64,000 nt of DNA from an uncultured archaeon (GTDB taxonomy: Archaea > Asgardarchaeota > Hermodarchaeia > Hermodarchaeales > Hermodarchaeaceae): contig CAYFXC010000003.1 of assembly GCA_964347045.1 (NCBI GenBank), positions 70,701 to 134,700 of the forward strand. Direction: 5' to 3'. This document shows positions 6,799-55,586 of the stretch, piece by piece; positions within the stretch are counted from its first letter, which is position 1; each line of letters starts with the position of its first letter. The notes under the pieces are model-generated. The model was given only the letters and a program-made list of their open reading frames with translations, did not search any database and was not told the origin of the DNA. Both the position numbers and the translations under genes were made by a program.

Positions 6799-9051
6799 AT
6801 GTCAGCAAAAATTCAACTTCGTGTAGTCTCTCTTCCAAGCGATGAAGCTGGACGTGGAATTGTCCGTGTTGACCCCAAGGTCATGGAACGCCTTGGCGTG
6901 ACGTCGGGGGACATAGTTGAGATTACAGGAAAAAAGAATACTGGTGCTCGCGTTTGGCGTGGTCAATCCATTCATGCGGGTTCAGGAAAAATCTTCATGG
7001 ATGGTCTGGTCCGAAGCAACGCTGGTACTGGGATTGGAGAATTTGTCGAAGTCAAACGAATTGATCCATCACCTGCTAAAGGAGTCGAACTTGCACCTGC
7101 ACAACGAGGTGTTCGAATTGTCGCGGAAGGCGATGCCGTAAAACCGAGCTTAAATCAACGACCAGTTGCTCAAGGTGATATTGTTAGTACTGCGGGATCA
7201 GGCACCATTCGGAGTGGCGATTATTCAGTTTTCGAAGCTATGATGCGTGGTGCAGGAGCACCCTTTGCCCTTGGAGAAATCAAGTTCGTGGTTACTAAAA
7301 CCACTCCTAAAGGCATTGTTAAGATTACCGAAGATACGGTTATTCAGATTCAACCCGAAGCCGTCGATATTACTGTAAAAGCTCCCATTGTCACCTACGA
7401 AGATATTGGAGGGCTTGATGAGGCTATTGACCGCGTTCGCGAGATGATTGAACTTCCTTTGAAACACCCGGTGCTCTTTGATCGATTGGGAATTGATCCA
7501 CCAAAAGGAGTCCTACTATTCGGACCACCTGGTACGGGTAAAACTCTTCTAGCACGTGCTGTAGCCAATGAATCTGATGCAACATTCATTTCCATTAATG
7601 GTCCTGAAATTATGAGTAAATTTTATGGCGAATCTGAAAAACGCCTACGGGAACTATTTGATAAAGCATCTGAACGTGCTCCTAGCATCATCTTCATTGA
7701 TGAAATCGACAGCATTGCTCCTAAACGTGAAGAAGTACAAGGGGAAGTAGAACGTCGTGTTGTAGCCCAGCTCCTTGCACTCATGGATGGTCTTCAAGCC
7801 CGAGGCCGAGTCATCGTCATTGCGGCCACTAACCGCCAAGATGCATTAGATCCAGCGTTACGTCGCCCCGGTCGCTTTGACCGCGAAATTGAAATCCCAG
7901 TACCAACACGCACGGGACGCAAGGAAATTCTTCTTATCCACACACGTGGTATGCCCTTAGCTAAAGATGTGAATCTAGATACACTTGCTGATTCCACACA
8001 TGGAATGGTAGGCGCTGATTTGGCTGCAATTGCCCGTGAAGCGGCAATGAATACGTTGCGCCGGATTCTTCCACGAATCAATTTGGATGAGGATCAACCT
8101 CTTCCATCAGATATTATTGAAAGTCTTGAAGTCACAGGTGAAGATTTTGACGAATCATTACGACGTGCAGAACCTTCTGCTCTTCGCGAAGTGTATCTAG
8201 AAATCCCCAAAGTATCATGGGAGGACGTGGGAGGACTAAAAGAAGTAGAAGATGAATTACGCGAAGCTGTTGAGTGGCCTCTAAAATACCCTGCTAAATT
8301 TGAAAAAGTCGGGGTTCAACCACCTAAAGGAATTCTTCTCGTTGGACCACCTGGTGGTGGAAAGACATTACTAGCAAAGGCTGTTGCCACCGAAAGTGAA
8401 GCCAACTTCATTGCCATCCGAGGACCTGAGATTTTCAGCAAATGGGTGGGAGAATCTGAGAAAGGAATTCGGAAAATCTTTCGCAAAGCACGACAAGTTG
8501 CGCCTAGTATAATCTTCTTTGACGAGCTTGATAGCCTTGCTCCCGCAAGAGGTCAATGGCAAGGAAGCCACGTCTATGAATCCGTTCTTAATCAACTCCT
8601 TGCAGAGATGGATGGAATGGAAGAGCTCAAAAACGTCGTTGTAATTGGTGCCACCAATCGACCTGAAATCATTGATAAGGCACTCCTCCGCCCTGGACGC
8701 TTTGACCGAATCATCATGGTCCCAGCACCAGACATGGAAGCTCGGATAGAAATTCTCAAGGTTCATACACGAAAAATGCCCATCGATGACGATGTAGACC
8801 TTATAAAAATCGCTAAGGAAACCGAAGGCTACTCTGGTGCTGATATCGCAAACCTTATCCGTGAAGCTGGCATGTACGCAATTCGAAACGAAGAAAAACT
8901 GACTACTGTCAATGCCAAGCACTTTGAAGCAGCTAGGGCTAAAATCAAACCCAGCATCACTCCTGAAATGCTCAAAGCCTACAAAGATTACATCGACGTG
9001 ATGTCCACAAAACGTGATGCTATCGACACCACGCCTGGTCCTTATACCTAA
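6799..9051 (+). CDS. cdc48: Cdc48/VAT (p97-family) AAA+ ATPase
   Basis: N-domain plus two AAA modules (GPPGTGKT / IIFIDEID / RRPGRFD; GPPGGGKT / IIFFDELD / RPGRFD). Confidence 0.97.
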
Positions 9052-9062
9052 AAACTTAAACA

Positions 9063-9100
9063 TCCGGCTCTCCCTGAGCCGGAAATCCCTTTCTTTTCAT
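9063..9100 (+). terminator. Hairpin plus pyrimidine tract after cdc48
   Basis: TCCGGCTC-tccct-GAGCCGGA (9063-9083) followed by CCCTTTCTTTTC. Confidence 0.6.
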
Positions 9101-9120
9101 CAAAATGGCGCTTGCCAGCC

Positions 9121-9181
9121 CTATAAAAGGTTTATAAGGGCAATGGCTACGTTATAAACAGTCTTTAAAAAGTTTATAAAG
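9121..9181 (+). promoter_or_regulatory. Cluster of TATA-like boxes upstream of tbp
   Basis: TATAAAA, TTTATAA, TTATAAA, TTTAAAAA and TTTATAAA within 60 bp. Confidence 0.55.
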
Positions 9182-46216: not shown

Positions 46217-47598
46217 GGGTTCGGAAACTGGTGTAGAGCGCGGACTAGCTCTGTATAAAATTTCGCGGTTTGCGGAATTGAATCAAGAAGTACATGCTCG
46301 TTAGAACCATGCACACCATATCCAATGGGACCAAAATCTATGGCTTGAATTGGACGGTCAGTAAAATGGCGCGTATCACTTGCCCCACCCAGTTCAATGG
46401 GTTCGGATTCTAGAGTGAGTTGAGTTGCGATAATCTGAGCCATTTGGACTAATTGAGAATCCTGAGGAGTGTTCATGAAGGCTTTGCCAACTCGTACAGA
46501 CATCTCATATTCGATTTGTGCAAGTTTCTCAGATAGAACTGTGTTCAGAGCCTTTTCAATTGGTTGACTGTCAGACGTCATTGCCCTTCCATCAAAATAA
46601 ATCTCCCATCGATTATTTTGCTCATATAACAAATTAGGGCAAAAGGTGATGCCATAATCACTGGGGTAGGTAGGGAATTGTATCCGAGTTATAGGTAATA
46701 GTGCTTGAAGAAGTTTTGTGAGGTTCTGATCACAAGTGCGAGTGTCTTCTTTTACCGAGTGAGTAGCATCAATTCCCTCAAATTCAAACCAATCTGGTAC
46801 TACATTGCTTTTAACGTAGCTTCCAGCGGTTGAAGAGATATTAATATTTGGGTTTTGAAGGAGAAAACTGGATGCAGCAAGTAGAGCGTGTTTATCAACT
46901 CCAGGCAAAAAATAGGCCGAATGCCGAGTTTGTCGTCCGGCATAATTTGTGGTGAATCGGTGTTTTTCGAATTTTCCATTACAAGGCTCCGGGTTTTGTG
47001 GAACCGAAACAGTGACCGAGACCGTGTTTCGTCGACGGGTGACTATTTGCATTCCAACTCCGTCAGCAGTAATTAGGTAATCAGGAAACAGGTCTTGTTT
47101 TTCTAGTCTAGCTCGGACAATCGGTGCTCCATTAATTCCCCCAATTTCTTCATCGCCTGTAATAACAAAAACTATGGTGCCTTCTATTTTGTGTTGAATT
47201 ATTTCTTCTGCTGAAAGGAGTAGAGCGGTTGTGTTTCCTTTGTCATCAGCGGTTCCACGTCCATATCCCATTCTGTCTCGCACCGTTAGCTCAAAAGGAT
47301 CAGTATCCCATCCTGGACCAATAGGAACTACATCAAAATGAGCTAGCAACAAGGTTACTGGACGACCCCTTCCGTGAATGGCAAGAACTGAAAAAAACCC
47401 GTTTTGTTCAAGAATCTGAGCATCATATCCCATCTCTGCTAGACGCTCATTCAGATATTCAGGGCATTCTCGTGTAGGCCGTATCATATTTCCTGGGTCA
47501 TTGACTGTGGGAAATGCGATAAGATGTTGCAATATATTGATGTAATCCAATCCATATTCACTCCATTTCATCAATGTCGTGCGGTTGTTACGGTGCAT
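46213..47598 (-). CDS. M20 family (ArgE/DapE-like) metallopeptidase
   Basis: AHFDVVP, GRGTADDKG, DEEIGG, GGASD, HGSNE. Confidence 0.92.
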   Translation of the reverse strand: MHRNNRTTLMKWSEYGLDYINILQHLIAFPTVNDPGNMIRPTRECPEYLNERLAEMGYDAQILEQNGFFSVLAIHGRGRPVTLLLAHFDVVPIGPGWDTDPFELTVRDRMGYGRGTADDKGNTTALLLSAEEIIQHKIEGTIVFVITGDEEIGGINGAPIVRARLEKQDLFPDYLITADGVGMQIVTRRRNTVSVTVSVPQNPEPCNGKFEKHRFTTNYAGRQTRHSAYFLPGVDKHALLAASSFLLQNPNINISSTAGSYVKSNVVPDWFEFEGIDATHSVKEDTRTCDQNLTKLLQALLPITRIQFPTYPSDYGITFCPNLLYEQNNRWEIYFDGRAMTSDSQPIEKALNTVLSEKLAQIEYEMSVRVGKAFMNTPQDSQLVQMAQIIATQLTLESEPIELGGASDTRHFTDRPIQAIDFGPIGYGVHGSNEHVLLDSIPQTAKFYTELVRALHQFPNP

Positions 47599-48506
47599 CC
47601 GTTTTTTTCTACTATTAATGTGTGTTCAGCCTGGGCAATAGGGCTTCCATCCTTTAATCCTAATACTGAATAATTATGAATGCATCCCTCTCGTTTAAGC
47701 ACGTTTAGTATTTGGGCTACTTTGTCTGGTTCTACTAGCTCAGCCATCCAACGGGACGCAAAAGGTAATTGACTAAATTTAATTTTCATCTGACTAAAAA
47801 GAGAGCGTAATTTGGGATCCTTTGGATTTCGCACGTGAGTAAATCCAAAAATATGCCCTGGTTCCAAATTATCAACATGAGGATTTTGGCTATAAGTGGC
47901 GAAGGGTTCAATAGCTACAACCATGTTTTCCTTTAACCGAGGCGAGCTTGTACGTTCCGTTGCGTATGTCACCGAAGGAACAGATATTCCAGCATGAAGA
48001 TTAAATTGTTCGATACTATGGCCTGTGAGGTTTTCAATCGGGCGCGTTTTCATCTGTTGCATTGCGGCTGAAATGGCTTTAGATACATTCCAAATGCGGA
48101 TTCCTGCTCGAACGGTGTTAATTGCTGCCTCCAAACCTGCTTCTGCTCCATCAATAAGCTGTTGAAGGCCTTCATCATCACCGACTAAAACAGTTCGAGC
48201 ATTATCTGCAACAAAACCATCTATGTGTACACCCAGATCAATCTTTACGAGAGCAATATCCGGAATTTGCGTAGAATCATCTAAGCTTGGTGTATAATGA
48301 GCCGCATGATGATTTATCGAGATGTTAATAGGAAACGCAGGTTTTCCACCAAGGCTTTGGATTTTAGTTTCTCCTGCTTCAGCAATTGAATATAATGGTT
48401 CACCTGCTTTTACGAGATCACAAGAAAATACTAGTGCTTCCGAAGCGATTTTTCCAGCACGCTGTAATTTTTCGCGTGTTCGTTCAAACATTGCCATATC
48501 ACGCAT
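47571..48506 (-). CDS. map: Type II methionine aminopeptidase
   Basis: AFP.NIS..AAHYTP, KIDLGVHIDGFVADNA, NLTGH, AIEPF, QAEHT. Confidence 0.96.
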   Translation of the reverse strand: MRDMAMFERTREKLQRAGKIASEALVFSCDLVKAGEPLYSIAEAGETKIQSLGGKPAFPINISINHHAAHYTPSLDDSTQIPDIALVKIDLGVHIDGFVADNARTVLVGDDEGLQQLIDGAEAGLEAAINTVRAGIRIWNVSKAISAAMQQMKTRPIENLTGHSIEQFNLHAGISVPSVTYATERTSSPRLKENMVVAIEPFATYSQNPHVDNLEPGHIFGFTHVRNPKDPKLRSLFSQMKIKFSQLPFASRWMAELVEPDKVAQILNVLKREGCIHNYSVLGLKDGSPIAQAEHTLIVEKNGCTVTTARH

Positions 48507-48637
48507 ATCAAATCGTTTCCGTTAAGTGGATTTGTCTAATTTCACGTGAAATTAAGACAAAATTTGTCGTTGACTTTAATTTAGGTATTACTCCTAGTTT
48601 AGCTAAAGGTCAAAAAGAGTTAAGAATAGACTTTCCA

Positions 48638-51382
48638 ATGGTTAAGAAAGGTGGATGTAAGCCACTTACCTCGGGGGCTCCGAATGTGACTACATTAGCA
48701 GAGCTTCGCAAGTACTACTCCATGCTAAAAGATATTAGTGCAAAATGTCGGACAATTATGGGTGGTCTCCCTTCTGAAATTAAAACCTCATTGGAAGATG
48801 TGGGACGGGAACTTGTAAGCCTAGAAGGTTTTGATAGGGATGCAAAAACGAGTTGGTCCCTAAGTCCGAAAAAACGTCGTCTTATAAAGCAAATTGATCA
48901 AGGGCTGCCAAAAATCGATGAAGATCTCTCTCGTTCACTTCGACTTCACATTGAGCTGTTGAAGACTTACATGACTGAGCTTGAAGAGCTAAAAGCAACA
49001 ATAATGACTTTTGATATTAAACTAGGACGTGATCTCAACAATCTCACCTTTCCTTCGACACAAGGGGGACATTCAGTTGTTTTGCCGGTTCTTTCACGAT
49101 TTGTAGCTAATTTTGAAGGTCTTTCTAAACAATTACGTGACGCTCTACTAAAGCAAACGAATGATATGCTTGAACAAAATCGGGCGTTGATTAAAACCTA
49201 CGATCGGTTTGTTGGTATTGACACGAGTGATGTTTCAATTAGTGCCGAGCGGGAAACTGTTGATGTGAGTACTATCCCGGAGCTTTTTGAAATTCGCAAG
49301 ACACTACGCCAAGAGCATGAATATCTCACAAGTCGACGTGGCGAAGTTGTTGATACATTACGAGCGAAACTGCAAGCTAGTATTGAATCCTCCGTATCCC
49401 TCTTAGAGACTGCTCGTAGTTTGAGTCTCAAAGTTCCTATGGCTATTTCTACATCACTTGAAGCGCTGAAAAAACAACTCAAAGGTGAGACTAATCTCAC
49501 CACACTTCTCGGGTTGGTTCAACAATATGATGGGCAAGTGTTAAAAGCCTCAAGTGAAGTCAGAAGCCAAATACTTGAATTTGGTCATAATCTTAACCGC
49601 ATTCTTGCTAGCGCTAATATCGCTAGTGAAGCCACTTTTCTTCCTCCTTTACCTCCTGAAGTTCCCAAAGATGCGGATTTAGCTGCGCTAGTTGCAAGCT
49701 ATGAACGCCTACAAGCATACCATACCAATGTTGAAACAGCTATCCGTGCTGAGATCATGCGTATAGTAGATGATTTGACTCGTGCTGTAAAACGGAATGT
49801 GCTTCCAAACACTGCGGAACTAGATAAATTCGTGAAAAATGAATCGAAAAAGGTAAAGAAAGGAGATCTGAAAGTTCTTGTCAAGGTATACTCCGAGGTT
49901 GCGGCTCAAATAATTGATGAACATGGAAAATTACTAGCTGAAATTAGAACTCAAGAAGCTTTACTAACTCGAATCTCAGAAACCGCTAGTACAATTCTTG
50001 ATAAAACCACAATGGGTGCAGCTCCTGCTCCTGTTCGAACCACAGACATTAGCTTCCCTGAGTTGGTTGAGGCGTATGCAAGACTACGAAAGCATGTTGA
50101 GAATCGGATCGATCTGTTCCGAAAAGCTTGGGAACGTGAACTCAACGCGCTTCTTGCTGAAATCCAAGTGATAAAACCAACCTATCGGGAATCTTTCAAA
50201 ACCATGGAAGAATTTTTGGAAAGTGCTATTGCACATATCCGCGCTAGTACTAGTTTCGAGGAAATTGAAGAAGTCGCCCGTGAGGCTCAAGGAGATGCTC
50301 TATATAAAGCGCAAGACGCCATTGAAAATCTCAAATATCGCCTAGATCTCAAACTGCGATTGGCGGTTTCAAAACTTTTAGGTATGGGGTTAACTATTCC
50401 TTCGGAAGTCCAGTCAGCCATTCAAGAACTGACAACGGTGGTCCCCGCTAGTGAAACCTATGAAGAAGCGATTCGTAAGGCCCATCACATTGTTGAACTT
50501 TTCGAAAAACGAATTGTGGGATACTTCAACCAGACTCTTAATGAACAAATCAAAGCCTTCTCAGAGTTAACAAGCGTGTCTGCTTCCTTGGGCATCAAAA
50601 CAGACTCTTATGTCAAAGAATCAATGAAACTGCAGGACAAATTACCCGCAAATATTGAGGAACTCCCTGACCGGTTCGACGAACTTCGTGAATTACTTAC
50701 CGACCCTAAGTTGCTTAAGGATATCCGTTCGAAAGCCAACGAAGTCTGGCGAAATCTCAATTCAGTTACTGATCTTCTTGAACGTCATGGACAAGCCGAG
50801 ATTGTAGCTAAACTAAAGGATCTGCTCGCTCGTGTTCCCGACGCCTTAGAAGCTGAACAAGTAAACACTGTTCTTGAAATTTGTATGGCTCTCATTGAAG
50901 CGCAAAATAGTGTACTTGATATTCTTCGCAACATGGAGCAAAAGACTGGACAAGCATACGAGCAGTTATTAGAAAATACTACCGAATACTACTCAACGAT
51001 TAAAAGAGTATACGCGGCACGACCGCTTGAATTTAGCAAAATCATATTTCCGTTAGATACTTTGCAGAATTTGCGTGGAAAATTAGAAACCGTTAATTCT
51101 CTACCCGAATCTATTGATATATTCACAACCATCCGCAGTTTAGAACAGCAATGGTTAGAAAAAATCAAAGAGCTTGATGAATGGCACAAGGCGCTCCGCG
51201 TTTTCCTCGCTGACTTTAATCCAGCGGCGCCTAAAGCTGAACGTAATCGTCAACTCAACGAAATCGAAAAAAGAATTCGCGAAACCTATACGCGCGAGGA
51301 TACTGCAAACTACCTCACTTGGGCTGCCAGAGAACTTGCAGCTGTCATGATCGAACAAAAAACAAAAGCAAAGAAAAAATAG
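48638..51382 (+). CDS. Large all-alpha / coiled-coil protein (~900 aa)
   Basis: Continuous amphipathic helices, no TM, no NTPase motif. The ORF-track start at 48386 overlaps map, so ATG 48638 or GTG 48686 is preferred. Confidence 0.75.
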   Translation: MVKKGGCKPLTSGAPNVTTLAELRKYYSMLKDISAKCRTIMGGLPSEIKTSLEDVGRELVSLEGFDRDAKTSWSLSPKKRRLIKQIDQGLPKIDEDLSRSLRLHIELLKTYMTELEELKATIMTFDIKLGRDLNNLTFPSTQGGHSVVLPVLSRFVANFEGLSKQLRDALLKQTNDMLEQNRALIKTYDRFVGIDTSDVSISAERETVDVSTIPELFEIRKTLRQEHEYLTSRRGEVVDTLRAKLQASIESSVSLLETARSLSLKVPMAISTSLEALKKQLKGETNLTTLLGLVQQYDGQVLKASSEVRSQILEFGHNLNRILASANIASEATFLPPLPPEVPKDADLAALVASYERLQAYHTNVETAIRAEIMRIVDDLTRAVKRNVLPNTAELDKFVKNESKKVKKGDLKVLVKVYSEVAAQIIDEHGKLLAEIRTQEALLTRISETASTILDKTTMGAAPAPVRTTDISFPELVEAYARLRKHVENRIDLFRKAWERELNALLAEIQVIKPTYRESFKTMEEFLESAIAHIRASTSFEEIEEVAREAQGDALYKAQDAIENLKYRLDLKLRLAVSKLLGMGLTIPSEVQSAIQELTTVVPASETYEEAIRKAHHIVELFEKRIVGYFNQTLNEQIKAFSELTSVSASLGIKTDSYVKESMKLQDKLPANIEELPDRFDELRELLTDPKLLKDIRSKANEVWRNLNSVTDLLERHGQAEIVAKLKDLLARVPDALEAEQVNTVLEICMALIEAQNSVLDILRNMEQKTGQAYEQLLENTTEYYSTIKRVYAARPLEFSKIIFPLDTLQNLRGKLETVNSLPESIDIFTTIRSLEQQWLEKIKELDEWHKALRVFLADFNPAAPKAERNRQLNEIEKRIRETYTREDTANYLTWAARELAAVMIEQKTKAKKK

Positions 51383-51394
51383 GGTTGGATTAAC

Positions 51395-52744
51395 ATGGAA
51401 GCAACTGATGAAGGACCGCGAGTCGCGGAAGTATTTGCCATCGGAATTGGAGAATGCGGAAGCAACCTCGTTGGGGCCTACCTCAAGCAAGCGCGTGAAC
51501 GCATGCTACCACCACGTATCCGCGGATACTTGTGCATGAATACTGATCGATCCGACATAACGAAGCTCCGTCAAAAATATGACATTCCCAAAGAAAACAC
51601 TCTCCTTTATGGCGCATCAGATATTGGTTGTGGCGGGAATTTTACTGATGGTTATAATTACGTTCATGACTTTAAAGATGTCATCATGGGTCAGTTGACG
51701 CAACTGGGGTTTGAGGGAGTCTCTGGGTTTGTCATATTTACGTCATCGGGCGGTGGAACTGGCTGTGGAGGCGCCCCCGCTTTAATTGAGATATTAAAGG
51801 AAAGATTTCAAGAGGAAGAAGGCCGTCGCATTTTCGTCTACGTCTTTACCGTACTTCCTTTCAAGGATCAAACCTCTGAAGCTCTCAACACTATGTGGTC
51901 GCTCTCCAAACTTCTGCGTGGGCAATTAGAAGATCGCGGAGCTGATCTTGTTTGTCTCCTTAGTAACCGCGCTATGCTTCGACGTATTCTGGCTTGGCGA
52001 GAAGGCGAAGTAGCTGATTTCTTACAAAAGCAGTTACAAATTGATGTGGCTAAAGTTACCGATGTTGAAGGAATGGTTCCTTCAACTGTCGATGGTGCCG
52101 ATGATGTGTCCAAGGCACAAGAATCAGCTTTTGTGGAACTCGTGAATCCTCTTGCGCTTAGGTTTGTTGAGCACATGCTAAGTCCTGGCGTCGTTGAGCC
52201 GGGTAAAGAAGTTTTTCCGACAACGGACATCGCAGACTACGCAAGGAAACTGGATCCTATTGTGGTGCCCTGTCTATATACTGATGTAAGTCTAATTCCC
52301 TCTGCTGGAAACATTCCGACGCAACTAAAAACAATGGTCAAATATGCCGTTGAACATTGTAGCTTTGCCGAAATCGGTTCAGAGCCAGGGGCTTCATCGA
52401 CATATTATACCTTCTCAGGAACTCGTGAATATGCACGAGCTGAATACGATCCACATATTAAACAGGCGCTTCGCCCTTATATTGCAAAGGGCGCAGCGAT
52501 TACACCCTGTTTTGTGTCCTATGATGAGGACACCCATCCATCTGATTTACTTCTTCTTTTGGGACTTCCTCAGATTCCTGAAATTGAGGATTTGGTAAAT
52601 TCAGCTACTGAACTTGTGGATCTTCATGCAGGTCCCTCGCCACTTCGAAGAGGTTGGTTTAAGAAATCTAAGGGTGTCGGTGAAGAAGTTCTTCGTGCAT
52701 CCATCCGTGATGTTGCTGAATTATTCAATCTCGAAATGAAGTAA
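51395..52744 (+). CDS. Divergent tubulin/FtsZ-superfamily GTPase with tubulin-like features
   Basis: GIGECGSNL, MNTD, GCGGNFTDGY, GFVIFTSSGGGTGCG, LLSNRAM, T7-like TTDIADY, and C-terminal helices. Confidence 0.9.
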   Translation: MEATDEGPRVAEVFAIGIGECGSNLVGAYLKQARERMLPPRIRGYLCMNTDRSDITKLRQKYDIPKENTLLYGASDIGCGGNFTDGYNYVHDFKDVIMGQLTQLGFEGVSGFVIFTSSGGGTGCGGAPALIEILKERFQEEEGRRIFVYVFTVLPFKDQTSEALNTMWSLSKLLRGQLEDRGADLVCLLSNRAMLRRILAWREGEVADFLQKQLQIDVAKVTDVEGMVPSTVDGADDVSKAQESAFVELVNPLALRFVEHMLSPGVVEPGKEVFPTTDIADYARKLDPIVVPCLYTDVSLIPSAGNIPTQLKTMVKYAVEHCSFAEIGSEPGASSTYYTFSGTREYARAEYDPHIKQALRPYIAKGAAITPCFVSYDEDTHPSDLLLLLGLPQIPEIEDLVNSATELVDLHAGPSPLRRGWFKKSKGVGEEVLRASIRDVAELFNLEMK

Positions 52745-52771
52745 ATTAAGCATTAGTGGAGAAGAAGAAGG

Positions 52772-53782
52772 TTGATAACAGCAGAAGAATTGCTGGAACG
52801 CATCCTCATTCTCACCACAGTCAACTCCACTCTTATTCATGCTCTTATTACCATAGAAGCCGAAGGAGATCTTAATCCTAAACAAATCAACCAGCTTGCT
52901 AGAGGAGTCCGGGCGGTTCGAGAATCGGTTGAGCAAGCACTAGTCGACTCAAAAAATAACAATATTTCTTCAGGTTCGTCCTTTGTGGATGACACCATCA
53001 AAGTTATTCTCACTCATCTTGAACGCATTGAAGCAGCCTTGGACTCATATGCGAAATCGCGAAAGAGAAAAATCTCAAAAGTGGAAGTAAAAGAACCCAT
53101 TATTGCTACCCAACAACTAGTTGCTGAAGCTAGCGAGGATCTTGCGGGACTTACTAGTAAGCCATTTCAACGTCGACTTTCTGTTTTTGATCCGGATAAG
53201 CTTCTTCCACCTATTCAGCAGTTATTGGATAAGTATTCCAGCAGGAGTCACCTTCTTTTACCCAATTATTGGTTCGAATCATGTCGGGAGCTATTCCGAT
53301 ACAGTGAACCACGTGAGGTGATCAAAGAAGTTACGCGTATAGCAAGTCAAATTTTCTACTCTCTTACACGCCGATTTCTTGCTGAAGCACCCTGTGCAGG
53401 TCTGCTTCAAGAACTTTCACGAAAAGGTTCACTAGGCAACGAATTAAACAGCCGTGAACGGAATAAAATCGCGGGAACTAGTAGTGAGTTCTATGATCAG
53501 CTTGCTAAAGCTCTAAAAGAAAATTCAGTAAAATCGAGTATTTCAGATGCTAAACGGAGTCTTCGCTCCTTTGATTGGGGTCCGGCTGACGTAGAGAAAC
53601 GGGTAGTTGGTGTAATTCATCGCAGTGCACGAGAACTTGTGGACCAAGCTGCAGATGGTAAGACTCTTTCAGTCCTAGAACGAATTATCCACGCTGAGCT
53701 TAGTCGCTACATCTCTGCGTTAGCTACGAATCTCCATAACTTACCGCGATTAAACAAATTGTTAACCGATATGAAGGTCTAA
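52772..53782 (+). CDS. Hypothetical alpha-helical protein, co-oriented with the tubulin-like gene
   Basis: 336-aa ORF 27 bp downstream with a purine-rich RBS; helical pattern. Confidence 0.7.
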   Translation: MITAEELLERILILTTVNSTLIHALITIEAEGDLNPKQINQLARGVRAVRESVEQALVDSKNNNISSGSSFVDDTIKVILTHLERIEAALDSYAKSRKRKISKVEVKEPIIATQQLVAEASEDLAGLTSKPFQRRLSVFDPDKLLPPIQQLLDKYSSRSHLLLPNYWFESCRELFRYSEPREVIKEVTRIASQIFYSLTRRFLAEAPCAGLLQELSRKGSLGNELNSRERNKIAGTSSEFYDQLAKALKENSVKSSISDAKRSLRSFDWGPADVEKRVVGVIHRSARELVDQAADGKTLSVLERIIHAELSRYISALATNLHNLPRLNKLLTDMKV

Positions 53783-54390
53783 GTTGGGTATAGTCGCTTC
53801 TTTAATTGTGCGTTCCCTGTTTCAACGTCATAATCAATCAAATCTGCTCGAGAAAGGTCGCCCAATGCTTTTCTGATTGCAGTAGCTTCATGTCCGGCTG
53901 TTTTTGTAATCTCGTCGCGGGTCATCTTTTTCTTCTTTCCATGCAAAAGGAACAATGTCTTCGCATGGGGTTGAGCATAAAAGACGTCTTCAAGTAACGC
54001 AATGTATAGGGCTAACAATTCCTGAACCGGGATTGATGTTTCTTGTTCAGCTACCAGCTCTTTGTAGGTGTCAGACATCTTCTCTAATTGTGTCTTAATG
54101 GCGTTAAGTTCTGATTCTAAAGCTCGGTTCTTGACCATCAAATCAGTTGATTTATCCGCTGATTCCTTCAGTTCATTGATTGTTCTTTCCAATCTGTCAA
54201 TGGTCGCATTCTTGTTTTGAAGGTCACTGGTTAATTCCTCTATGCGTGCTTCTGCGGTTTTATTCCGTTCACGTTGCTCTACAAGCTCTTGGTTCATGTC
54301 ATTGACAATTTTTTGAACTTTTTTTACAGTCTTTGTGGCTTCAGCAGGATAATCCTTTTCGGGTGGTTTCTCAGTTGCCATTCTATTCAC
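53779..54390 (-). CDS. Coiled-coil + C-terminal winged-helix protein
   Basis: Heptads over ~aa 20-115; MTRDEITKTAGHEATAIRKALGDLSRADLIDYD. Confidence 0.75.
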   Translation of the reverse strand: MNRMATEKPPEKDYPAEATKTVKKVQKIVNDMNQELVEQRERNKTAEARIEELTSDLQNKNATIDRLERTINELKESADKSTDLMVKNRALESELNAIKTQLEKMSDTYKELVAEQETSIPVQELLALYIALLEDVFYAQPHAKTLFLLHGKKKKMTRDEITKTAGHEATAIRKALGDLSRADLIDYDVETGNAQLKKRLYPT

Positions 54391-54448
54391 CTTCTATTGT
54401 CACTTTACATTGCTTAGGGTTTCTTGTATTTATGGCTAGAGTTTTCAT

Positions 54449-55480
54449 CTACTTAGTGTTTTTTTGTTTGCGAGTTGCAATACGGTTGAGTTGAGGTGGT
54501 GGCGGAGGTGCTACAATTGATTCTTGGGTAAAATCGAAAATAGTTATCACGTCATTTTCAAACGTTGCCTTCAGTTGTTGTGTAGAATCCACAGTTCCCA
54601 ATGAGGTGGCTGTTAATTTATGTTCTTTAAAGATGGATATGACCGATTTAACATTATCCGGAATAGTCGTGACGATAAACCCTGTCGAGATGTACATTTT
54701 CAACCAAGTAGTTAAATCAAGATTCTTTGGAACAGGTATAGCCGCAAAATCGATGGTTGCGCCCTTTTGCGCATACTCCAACATTAGAAGGCTTGTCCCA
54801 ATAATGCCTCCGTTGCTCAAATCCTTTGATGCGGTAAGAAGACATCGTTCTGCAAGAACTCGCATTGCTTCATATCGTTTGAGAACATCCTTCGACTTCT
54901 TAAGGGCGGTAGTGTCCCATCCAAACTCATAATTCGGAGAAACACGTCCTTCTAAATCGACTGCTAGAATGAGCTGATCACCTGGCTGAGCTCCACCCGC
55001 ACTGATATAGGCTTCTCTGGGAACTGTTCCACAAATTGATGCACTTACTCCATTAATCGGGGCATTGGGTGTCGTATGTCCTCGGACTACTTCAACTTTG
55101 AACTTTTGCCCCGCGTCACAGATTCCTTCCATAAACTTCACACCTGCTTCCATTTCAGTGAATGCGACGTTAACCATAGCCACAATTGGGCGTCCACCCG
55201 CTGCATAGATATCATTCACATTAACAAGGATAGCAGCATACCCGGCAACATACGGCTTAGACTCCGCTAGTTCTGGGATGACTGCATCTGTTGAAAGCAA
55301 AATAAGATTATCTCCACCCAGGTCAATGGCTGCGGAGTCCTCTCCAATTGAAGAGAGAACATGTGGGCATTTGAACCCTTCATTTCGAAGAATTGTTACC
55401 AGTTGACCAATTGGTTGTTTACGGCGTAATCCCCAATAGTCTTTTACATCAGAAACGATAGTAGACAACTTTTCAGGCAT
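54449..55480 (-). CDS. AIR synthase (PurM)-related protein (methanogenesis marker 2/Sll0787-like)
   Basis: GEDSAAI, LVNVNDIYAAGGRP, GHT, SKDLSNGGIIG. Confidence 0.85.
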   Translation of the reverse strand: MPEKLSTIVSDVKDYWGLRRKQPIGQLVTILRNEGFKCPHVLSSIGEDSAAIDLGGDNLILLSTDAVIPELAESKPYVAGYAAILVNVNDIYAAGGRPIVAMVNVAFTEMEAGVKFMEGICDAGQKFKVEVVRGHTTPNAPINGVSASICGTVPREAYISAGGAQPGDQLILAVDLEGRVSPNYEFGWDTTALKKSKDVLKRYEAMRVLAERCLLTASKDLSNGGIIGTSLLMLEYAQKGATIDFAAIPVPKNLDLTTWLKMYISTGFIVTTIPDNVKSVISIFKEHKLTATSLGTVDSTQQLKATFENDVITIFDFTQESIVAPPPPPQLNRIATRKQKNTK

Positions 55481-55586
55481 CTAAATGCAGGCTCCTCAAA
55501 TAGAATCGAGTATGTAGGTTTCGATAAAACTTGTGGTTACAACGCATTATAGAACGAAAAAAGCTATGAAATCATGTGAATTGAAT

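Follow-up and report, generated by a model that had tools for sequence, protein, structure and literature searches.

The window analysed here is a stretch of 64,000 nucleotides (nt) from an uncultured archaeon of the Hermodarchaeaceae in the Asgardarchaeota (assembly GCA_964347045.1, contig CAYFXC010000003.1, positions 70,701 to 134,700), and the subject of this study is a trio of co-oriented genes on its forward strand. The first gene (48638..51382) encodes a large protein of 914 amino acids (aa) from its ATG, as read from the open reading frame (ORF) and its translation; the second (51395..52744) encodes a tubulin-superfamily GTPase of 449 aa; and the third (52772..53782), which starts with TTG, encodes a small protein of 336 aa. 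The genes are separated by gaps of 12 nt (large to GTPase) and 27 nt (GTPase to small), with a purine-rich stretch before the start codon in each. The stop codon of the small gene shares the letters 'ctaa' (53779–53782, a 4-nt overlap) with that of a convergent gene, P0004 (53779..54390, minus strand), an ORF of 203 aa encoding a coiled coil and a C-terminal winged helix-turn-helix (wHTH)-like region. A first-pass annotation of this DNA had described the same layout and proposed a dedicated filament system made of an all-helical large protein without an ATPase motif, a tubulin-superfamily GTPase and a helical partner. The ORFs confirmed the sizes, orientation, gaps and overlap of the genes. 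Further, the AlphaFold2 (AF2) models of the large and small proteins were all-helical, Walker A was absent from the large protein, and the Pfam family PF00091 (Tubulin) matched residues 12–195 of the middle protein with 67.3 bits against a cut-off of 33.

The linkage of these genes across Asgard genomes, which the annotation had suggested as a check, was studied in 84 loci carrying a homologue of the GTPase, where a locus was informative if it had enough flanking DNA on the side in question. Immediately upstream, in the same orientation, all 73 informative loci had a homologue of the large protein, and all 77 loci informative on the other side had a homologue of the small protein downstream of the GTPase gene, with median intergenic distances of 15 nt (large to GTPase) and 19 nt (GTPase to small). 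The GTPase homologues came from metagenome-assembled genomes (MAGs) labelled Hermod-, Thor-, Borr-, Sif-, Heimdall-, Hod-, Baldr- and Asgardarchaeia, with identities of 44–97%. In three distant loci the gene order was again large, GTPase, small, and the proteins flanking the GTPase were homologous by BLASTP to their counterparts. The most divergent member, labelled Baldrarchaeota and with a GTPase 44% identical, carried the same trio, and both its partners were homologous with hhalign probabilities of 99.5–100. At the level of sequence, both partners are thus homologous across the phylum. Between classes the partners were 18–30% identical, whereas the GTPase was 50–64% identical (44–64% when the most divergent loci are included); sequence change has been much more rapid in the partners. 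The genes outside the trio varied between lineages and were of housekeeping type. This arrangement is far beyond chance, and the trio is a conserved three-gene module.

Upon scanning 400 Asgard genomes, the GTPase was found in 124 of them, mostly as one copy per genome. It was common in families f1 (14/18), f10 (20/22) and f28 (5/5) and in three families that include the Thor-like f31 (75/89 together), and it was absent from f20 (0/135), f7 (0/31) and f12 (0/12). In a tree of the GTPase, sequences from MAGs with like lineage labels fell together, and a single duplication was seen, within the Heimdall/Hod group. For a few records the labels themselves were questionable. The GTPase of a locus labelled Odinarchaeota (L010, JBHLQC010000006.1) was 95% identical to that of the Hermod-like window, and in L009, L010 and L023 the Odin-, Thor- or Hermodarchaeota labels clash with the GTPase identities, indicating that the taxon labels of such records are unreliable. 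Genes for Arf/Ras small GTPases, which were seen near the trio in two loci (L002 and L004), are not conserved there, with tblastn matches in 4 of 91 sequences. A distant tubulin-like protein, P0128 (28–33% identical), was encoded at 7001–9149 of a Logan contig from SRR7811641 (L088). Its gene adjoins SMC/ScpA and pyrimidine-synthesis genes, the large gene is not upstream, and the overlapping downstream gene (262 aa) had no more than the F.W motif in common with the small family, with a probability of 16%. This locus may be a sister system.

The middle protein was then compared with known members of the tubulin superfamily. Its T1 loop GIGECGSN (residues 17–24) and its T4 loop GGGTGCGG (residues 119–126), in which Cys stands in place of the Ser/Thr of the GGGTG(S/T)G signature, were invariant in 15 diverse members, as were the two aspartates D278 and D281 of the T7 loop. 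This loop has the form PTTD278-x-x-D281 (PTTD278-IA-D281 here) and was aligned by hhalign to the DxxD of CetZ-like proteins. Another segment, VNPLAL, had been considered as a degenerate T7 loop and was rejected, as the profile alignment places VNPLAL in H7 and TTDxxD at T7. A variable acidic insertion of about 40 aa separates H6 from H7. Behind the CetZ-like terminal helix comes a further conserved segment, WF-x-RSKG..., at the C-terminus. In searches against PDB sequences, the closest solved relatives were CetZ entries, namely 4b46 (E 1.6e-11 with the family profile), 3zid and 4b45 (to 1e-6), and gamma-tubulin, AtubA, BtubA and OdinTubulin came next with E of about 1e-5. These matches were confined to the N-terminal domain, with the tubulins covering roughly residues 55–200. 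The hhalign alignment with CetZ-like proteins was full length (residues 11–443, probability 100, E 5e-46); no Pfam C-terminal domain of the FtsZ_C/Tubulin_C type was detected in the GTPase, and the CetZ-like profile alignment spans that part of the protein. Whole-length kinship to bona fide tubulins was not found, and T7 follows the DxxD pattern of FtsZ and CetZ, not the tubulin one.

The family stands apart from its relatives. An exhaustive search of 1.84 billion representative proteins returned only two full-length clusters at 50% identity; beyond them there was one 33%-identical protein with a full-length E of 1e-28, and the remaining matches were worse than E 1e-9 and covered the N-terminal domain only. 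As for a place within the CetZ clade, whose boundary is set by the Thermococcales CetZs (Duggin 2015; Brown & Duggin 2023), the nearest solved proteins are CetZ, matched over the N-terminal domain only with E of about 1e-11, a large score gap surrounds the family, and the GTPase tree, having CetZ-like sequences as its outgroup, cannot settle membership. From its motifs and profile matches, the GTPase is best described as an isolated CetZ-like family of the tubulin superfamily with intact catalytic motifs. Where homologues had a database name, it was 'hypothetical protein', except for one Heimdall-labelled protein named 'Tubulin-like protein CetZ'. In one locus from an Asgardarchaeia MAG (L004, 8001–9323), the GTPase was called as two proteins of 389 and 42 aa; the short piece matches the GTPase C-terminus, indicating an in-frame stop or a frameshift.

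The small protein consists of an N-terminal three-helix bundle (residues 1–101), a disordered linker (102–128) and a helical C-terminal domain (about 130–336). Its AF2 model had a predicted local distance difference test score (pLDDT) of 83.8 overall and above 90 in the C-terminal domain. The linker varies in length among relatives and is often acidic, and the C-terminal domain holds the family motifs YS..H.LLP.FW, LL.EAPGARLLQ, F.WG...LEKR and a terminal MKP. We found no Pfam or NCBIfam family, Walker A motif or transmembrane segment in this protein, and Pfam scans of all members of its alignment gave no recurrent family. Fold searches with the model (Foldseek against the PDB, VIA against 48,161 chains and ESM Atlas by shape) returned nothing specific; in the whole-model search only the N-terminal three-helix bundle gave generic matches, with Z of at most 9.8. 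An ESM Atlas feature search gave no usable match for the C-terminal domain, the family profile gave only compositional helical matches among PDB sequences, and no homology was found between the small and large proteins.

To assess the interaction between the partner and the GTPase, the complex of the GTPase and the small protein was predicted from their own family alignments with GTP included, together with three controls. The interface score ipSAE was 0.64 (runs 0.60, 0.67 and 0.64), compared to 0.00 for the best control. The mark applied to this score is reached by 58 of 80 solved complexes and by 2 of 110 mismatched pairs, counts that hold only roughly here since the use of own alignments and a ligand differs from the calibration setup. 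The runs shared at least 97% of their contacts, and the pLDDT of the small protein was at least 79. On the side of the small protein, the interface comprises 17 residues (within 206–207, 269–287 and 332–336), all in the C-terminal domain, and 5 of the 12 invariant columns of the family fall in it (A206, P207, G270, R277 and K335). This enrichment has a hypergeometric p of about 1e-4, or 1e-3 within the C-terminal domain. On the side of the GTPase, the interface comprises 24 residues (within 52–59, 65–76 and 93–104). Going by motif alignment to the FtsZ/CetZ topology, and not by a structure, these would fall in H2, in S3 and the loop that joins it to H2, in the first part of T3 and in the C-terminal half of H3. 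The predicted interface would therefore lie on the lateral face of the GTPase, beside the T3 loop that senses the gamma-phosphate. The first-pass annotation had named complex prediction as a check of its partner interaction, and for the small protein the outcome was in its favor: the C-terminal domain of the small protein is predicted to bind the GTPase.

The large protein, described here as soluble, was modelled as 31 helices, with long helices and hairpins arranged in series. Its pLDDT was 85.7 and its predicted template modelling score was 0.38, the latter fitting an elongated shape of multiple bundles. The family ranges from 870 to 1185 aa and is Asgard-only. No Pfam or NCBIfam family, Walker A motif or transmembrane segment was found in it, and Pfam scans of all alignment members were likewise empty. 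Internal sequence repeats were weak, with hhalign probabilities between segments of at most 30%. The annotation had suggested spectrin-repeat, gamma-tubulin complex protein (GCP) and dynamin-stalk folds as analogies to be sought with Foldseek, and these found no support. With the whole 914-residue model, the best named row was PRC1 (4l3i; E 0.05, TM-score 0.10) and a GCP row had E 0.23, neither being significant, and VIA gave generic three-helix bundles with Z of at most 8.9, below the background of helical proteins. Hence neither Foldseek against the PDB nor VIA against 48,161 chains returned a specific fold relative. The family profile gave compositional helical matches only among PDB sequences, and the ESM Atlas feature search found only the protein's own Thor-labelled cluster. 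In word-filtered searches with the profiles of both partners, the matches had no name or were called 'hypothetical protein' or, in one case, 'DNA-binding ferritin-like protein', and the organism labels, where given, were all Asgard. Neither partner has a recognisable fold or family among the resources searched.

In FtsZ and tubulin, the acidic residue of T7 works in trans across the longitudinal contact between subunits. As both T7 aspartates are invariant in the present family, we infer from the sequences that the GTPase polymerises and activates itself. We lean slightly towards the reading that the three genes are co-transcribed and form a cytoskeletal module specific to Asgard archaea, which sits on the chromosome, is inherited vertically and would operate as follows. 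The GTPase would bind GTP and most likely polymerise head-to-tail, as its intact motifs suggest, with the following subunit contributing the T7 loop that sets off hydrolysis. The C-terminal domain of the small protein is predicted to bind the lateral GTPase face built by H2, S3, H3 and the first part of T3, leaving the N-terminal bundle on its flexible linker free to attach elsewhere, and the small protein would act as adaptor or regulator. With its helical bundles strung into an elongated chain, the large protein might scaffold, bundle or anchor the polymer. By analogy with CetZ, the role of the module would likely lie in cell shape or internal organisation and not in DNA segregation, and P0004 would be an unrelated neighbour. 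The annotation's proposal of a tubulin-like system with partners dedicated to it finds support in the invariant synteny, the homology of the partners across loci and the controlled prediction of small-partner binding; its DNA adaptor and its fold analogies find none, and its scaffold or nucleator is a conjecture.

Besides the roughness of the calibration and the motif-based assignment of the interface given above, several points weigh against the cytoskeletal module. The roles ascribed to the partners follow from shape and linkage only. Invariant residues are no commoner on the GTPase side of the predicted interface than in the protein as a whole (3/24, compared to 25% overall); this side may co-vary with the partner by lineage, an effect inseparable from shared ancestry. 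In two genomes a second GTPase copy has an upstream large gene and no small gene downstream, indicating that the small partner is not always encoded alongside. These second copies (L089, G067:C1:2890000-2906000, and L090, G072:C10:6000-22000) belong to one genus of the Heimdall group, are about 53% identical to the first copies, and have a convergent 740-aa gene in place of the small partner.

Whether the GTPase forms filaments at all has to be weighed against a stoichiometric, non-filamentous complex, in which the small protein, placed on the H2/S3/T3/H3 face, would block the lateral or longitudinal contacts of the GTPase and the GTPase would serve as a nucleotide-dependent switch on the large helical platform. 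The predicted interface reaches residues 73–76, at the start of the gamma-phosphate-sensing T3 loop, as would suit such a switch, and the family is long-branched, apart from polymerising relatives, and has its own insertion of about 40 aa and C-terminal extension. However, the two invariant T7 aspartates correspond to residues that act only in trans in FtsZ and tubulin, and the predicted interface excludes the T7 side and the nucleotide-facing surface; we consider this complex unlikely. If filaments are formed, they could belong to a division ring, with the GTPase as an alternative FtsZ that replaces or supplements FtsZ2 and the partners organising the ring like EzrA/ZapA. Membership in the tubulin superfamily fits this proposal, and so does the large protein as a helical-bundle rod, since EzrA is also a helical-bundle rod. 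In the source genome (88.9% complete) a single bona fide FtsZ is encoded away from the trio, the one high-quality genome available for its genus likewise has one FtsZ match, and trio-bearing genomes of the Hermod-like f1 and the Heimdall-group f10 have one match only, while Thor-like genomes and the largest Asgard family have two. Yet the trio occurs together with two FtsZ matches in the Thor-like f31 and in f2, f4, f5 and f28, and it is missing from f3, f7, f9, f16, f17 and f24, families with a single FtsZ match. Replacement of FtsZ2 was rejected on this basis, as FtsZ copy number (one or two) is not complementary to trio presence across families. With no sepF or other division gene nearby and no transmembrane anchor in the large protein, a division role seems quite improbable to us.

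The first-pass annotation had also taken P0004 as a possible part of the system, a DNA adaptor as in TubZRC-type segregation that would link DNA to the filament. In support, P0004 overlaps the end of the operon by 4 bp and shows, apart from coiled-coil noise matches, weak wHTH matches to TrmB, TFIIE-alpha and Lrs14 at residues 137–191. Its distribution speaks otherwise. Of the 400 Asgard genomes, 320 carry the P0004 family as a single copy, as do 82 of the 90 rated high-quality, and families from which the trio is missing altogether have it too (f20, 112/135; f12, 12/12; f7, 24/31). It adjoins the trio only in the Hermod-like loci L005–L015; in Thor and Heimdall genomes the two are found on different contigs or megabases apart. 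As P0004 is phylum-wide and trio-adjacent only in Hermod-like genomes, the adaptor reading is unsupported. Moreover, no iteron or tandem array was found in 47500–55500, where direct repeats were only scattered short families of 2–3 copies, and the TubZ family PF13809 (Tubulin_2) scored 15.3 bits on the GTPase, below its cut-off of 27. The chromosomal site, the housekeeping neighbours and the grouping of the GTPase tree by lineage label also argue against segregation. The proposal is largely refuted by the distribution of P0004, and we regard it as very improbable. P0004 may instead be a conserved Asgard regulator or structural protein; its family measures about 170–250 aa, is near-universal in Asgard archaea, and no name was found for it. 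Tubulin-like genes such as PhuZ and TubZ are found in phages and plasmids, and the trio is patchy within Asgard archaea (124/400 genomes), as might be expected of cargo of a mobile element, virus or defence island. But the trio proteins matched no PADLOC or PHROG family, no integrase or other mobile-element gene lies in the flanks, the GC content is even, and the GTPase is mostly single-copy with a tree that follows the lineage labels, so we give the cargo explanation hardly any credence.

The cytoskeletal module was compared with known systems. It resembles CetZ in its best solved sequence relatives and in the full-length profile alignment, including the T7 DxxD and the C-terminal strand-helix. 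It differs in the isolation of the family, the T1 GECG, the T4 GGGTGCG, the insertion of about 40 aa and the extra conserved C-terminal segment. Further, the GTPase family is Asgard-restricted and comes with two partner genes, and we did not find such partners described for CetZ, whose gene contexts are reported to be unrelated (PMC9871819). Like BtubA/B-BtubC and TubZ-TubR-tubC, the operon pairs a tubulin-like polymer, as we propose, with dedicated accessory proteins. Unlike in those systems, the partners have no tetratricopeptide repeat or wHTH domain and there are no centromere repeats, and the trio differs from TubZ in its Pfam score below cut-off and in being chromosomal and Asgard-restricted. 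The large protein, as an elongated all-helical bundle array, is reminiscent of PRC1/MAP65, EzrA and GCP, a resemblance of shape only with no significant match; EzrA was absent from the fold-match lists of the large model.

A previous study described 'Asg.Tub', an Asgard-only CetZ-like group with an unstable position between CetZ and tubulins, placed outside canonical CetZ and neighboured by 'unknown genes' with coiled-coil regions (Santana-Molina et al. 2023, PMC9871819), and a preprint describes a 'CetZ-related Asgard clade' (10.64898/2026.02.15.705738). The GTPase clade studied here is probably the same, matched by description and not by accession. These papers call the group scarce, in contrast to the 124 of 400 Asgard genomes found here, and define no three-gene operon, partner families or interaction. 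Full-text searches of the literature found no description of the conserved trio, its partner families or their interaction. What appears to be new is the conserved trio of a tubulin-superfamily GTPase with dedicated accessory proteins, the GTPase clade itself having probably been noted in 2023, and the trio probably makes up a filament system that has not been described before.

Asgard archaea have FtsZ and the AtubA/B or Odin tubulins, and the trio would be their third tubulin-superfamily system. It is present in about one third of the sampled genomes, including those of the Heimdall/Hod group, is strongly conserved, with a GTPase 44–64% identical across classes, and brings two uncharacterised partners. 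It thus offers a testable prokaryotic case of a tubulin-like GTPase with dedicated binding proteins, in which the predicted GTPase–small interface gives specific residues to mutate. A bolder version, which we put forward tentatively and rather doubt, is an ancient Asgard system in which a CetZ-like polymer, a dedicated adaptor and a giant helical rod form a composite lattice or bundle. If true, the trio would be an independently evolved counterpart of tubulin with its microtubule-associated protein (MAP)/scaffold systems that arose before the Heimdall-group lineages parted from Thor, Hermod and Baldr, and the partners would add two folds or families to the known tubulin-binding proteins.

The surroundings of the trio are unremarkable. 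Its neighbours encode M24 and M20 peptidases, a major facilitator superfamily (MFS) transporter, serine hydroxymethyltransferase (SHMT), an aminoimidazole ribonucleotide (AIR)-synthase-related protein, TldD/PmbA and an ABC/FtsX pair. These are housekeeping genes, and the usual archaeal ftsZ neighbours are absent, as the annotation had stated. The divergent intergenic region upstream of the large gene (48507..48637, plus strand) is a putative operon promoter, in which a TATA-like TTTAATTTA was read by eye at 48575–48583, about 55 nt ahead of the ATG. A longer, TTG-initiated ORF for the large gene, starting from 48386, would run into the divergent M24 peptidase gene.

Two pairs of repeats were observed within these genes. 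A 20-nt inverted repeat, 19/20 complementary, lies inside both convergent genes (53453–53472 in the small gene and 54254–54273 in P0004), placing near-identical 20 nt, which encode RERNK(I/T)A in both proteins, in the two convergent mRNAs. By a rough estimate, about 0.004 such repeats would be expected by chance in 8 kb. A second pair, of 19 nt, lies within the large gene at 49517–49535 and 50480–50498.

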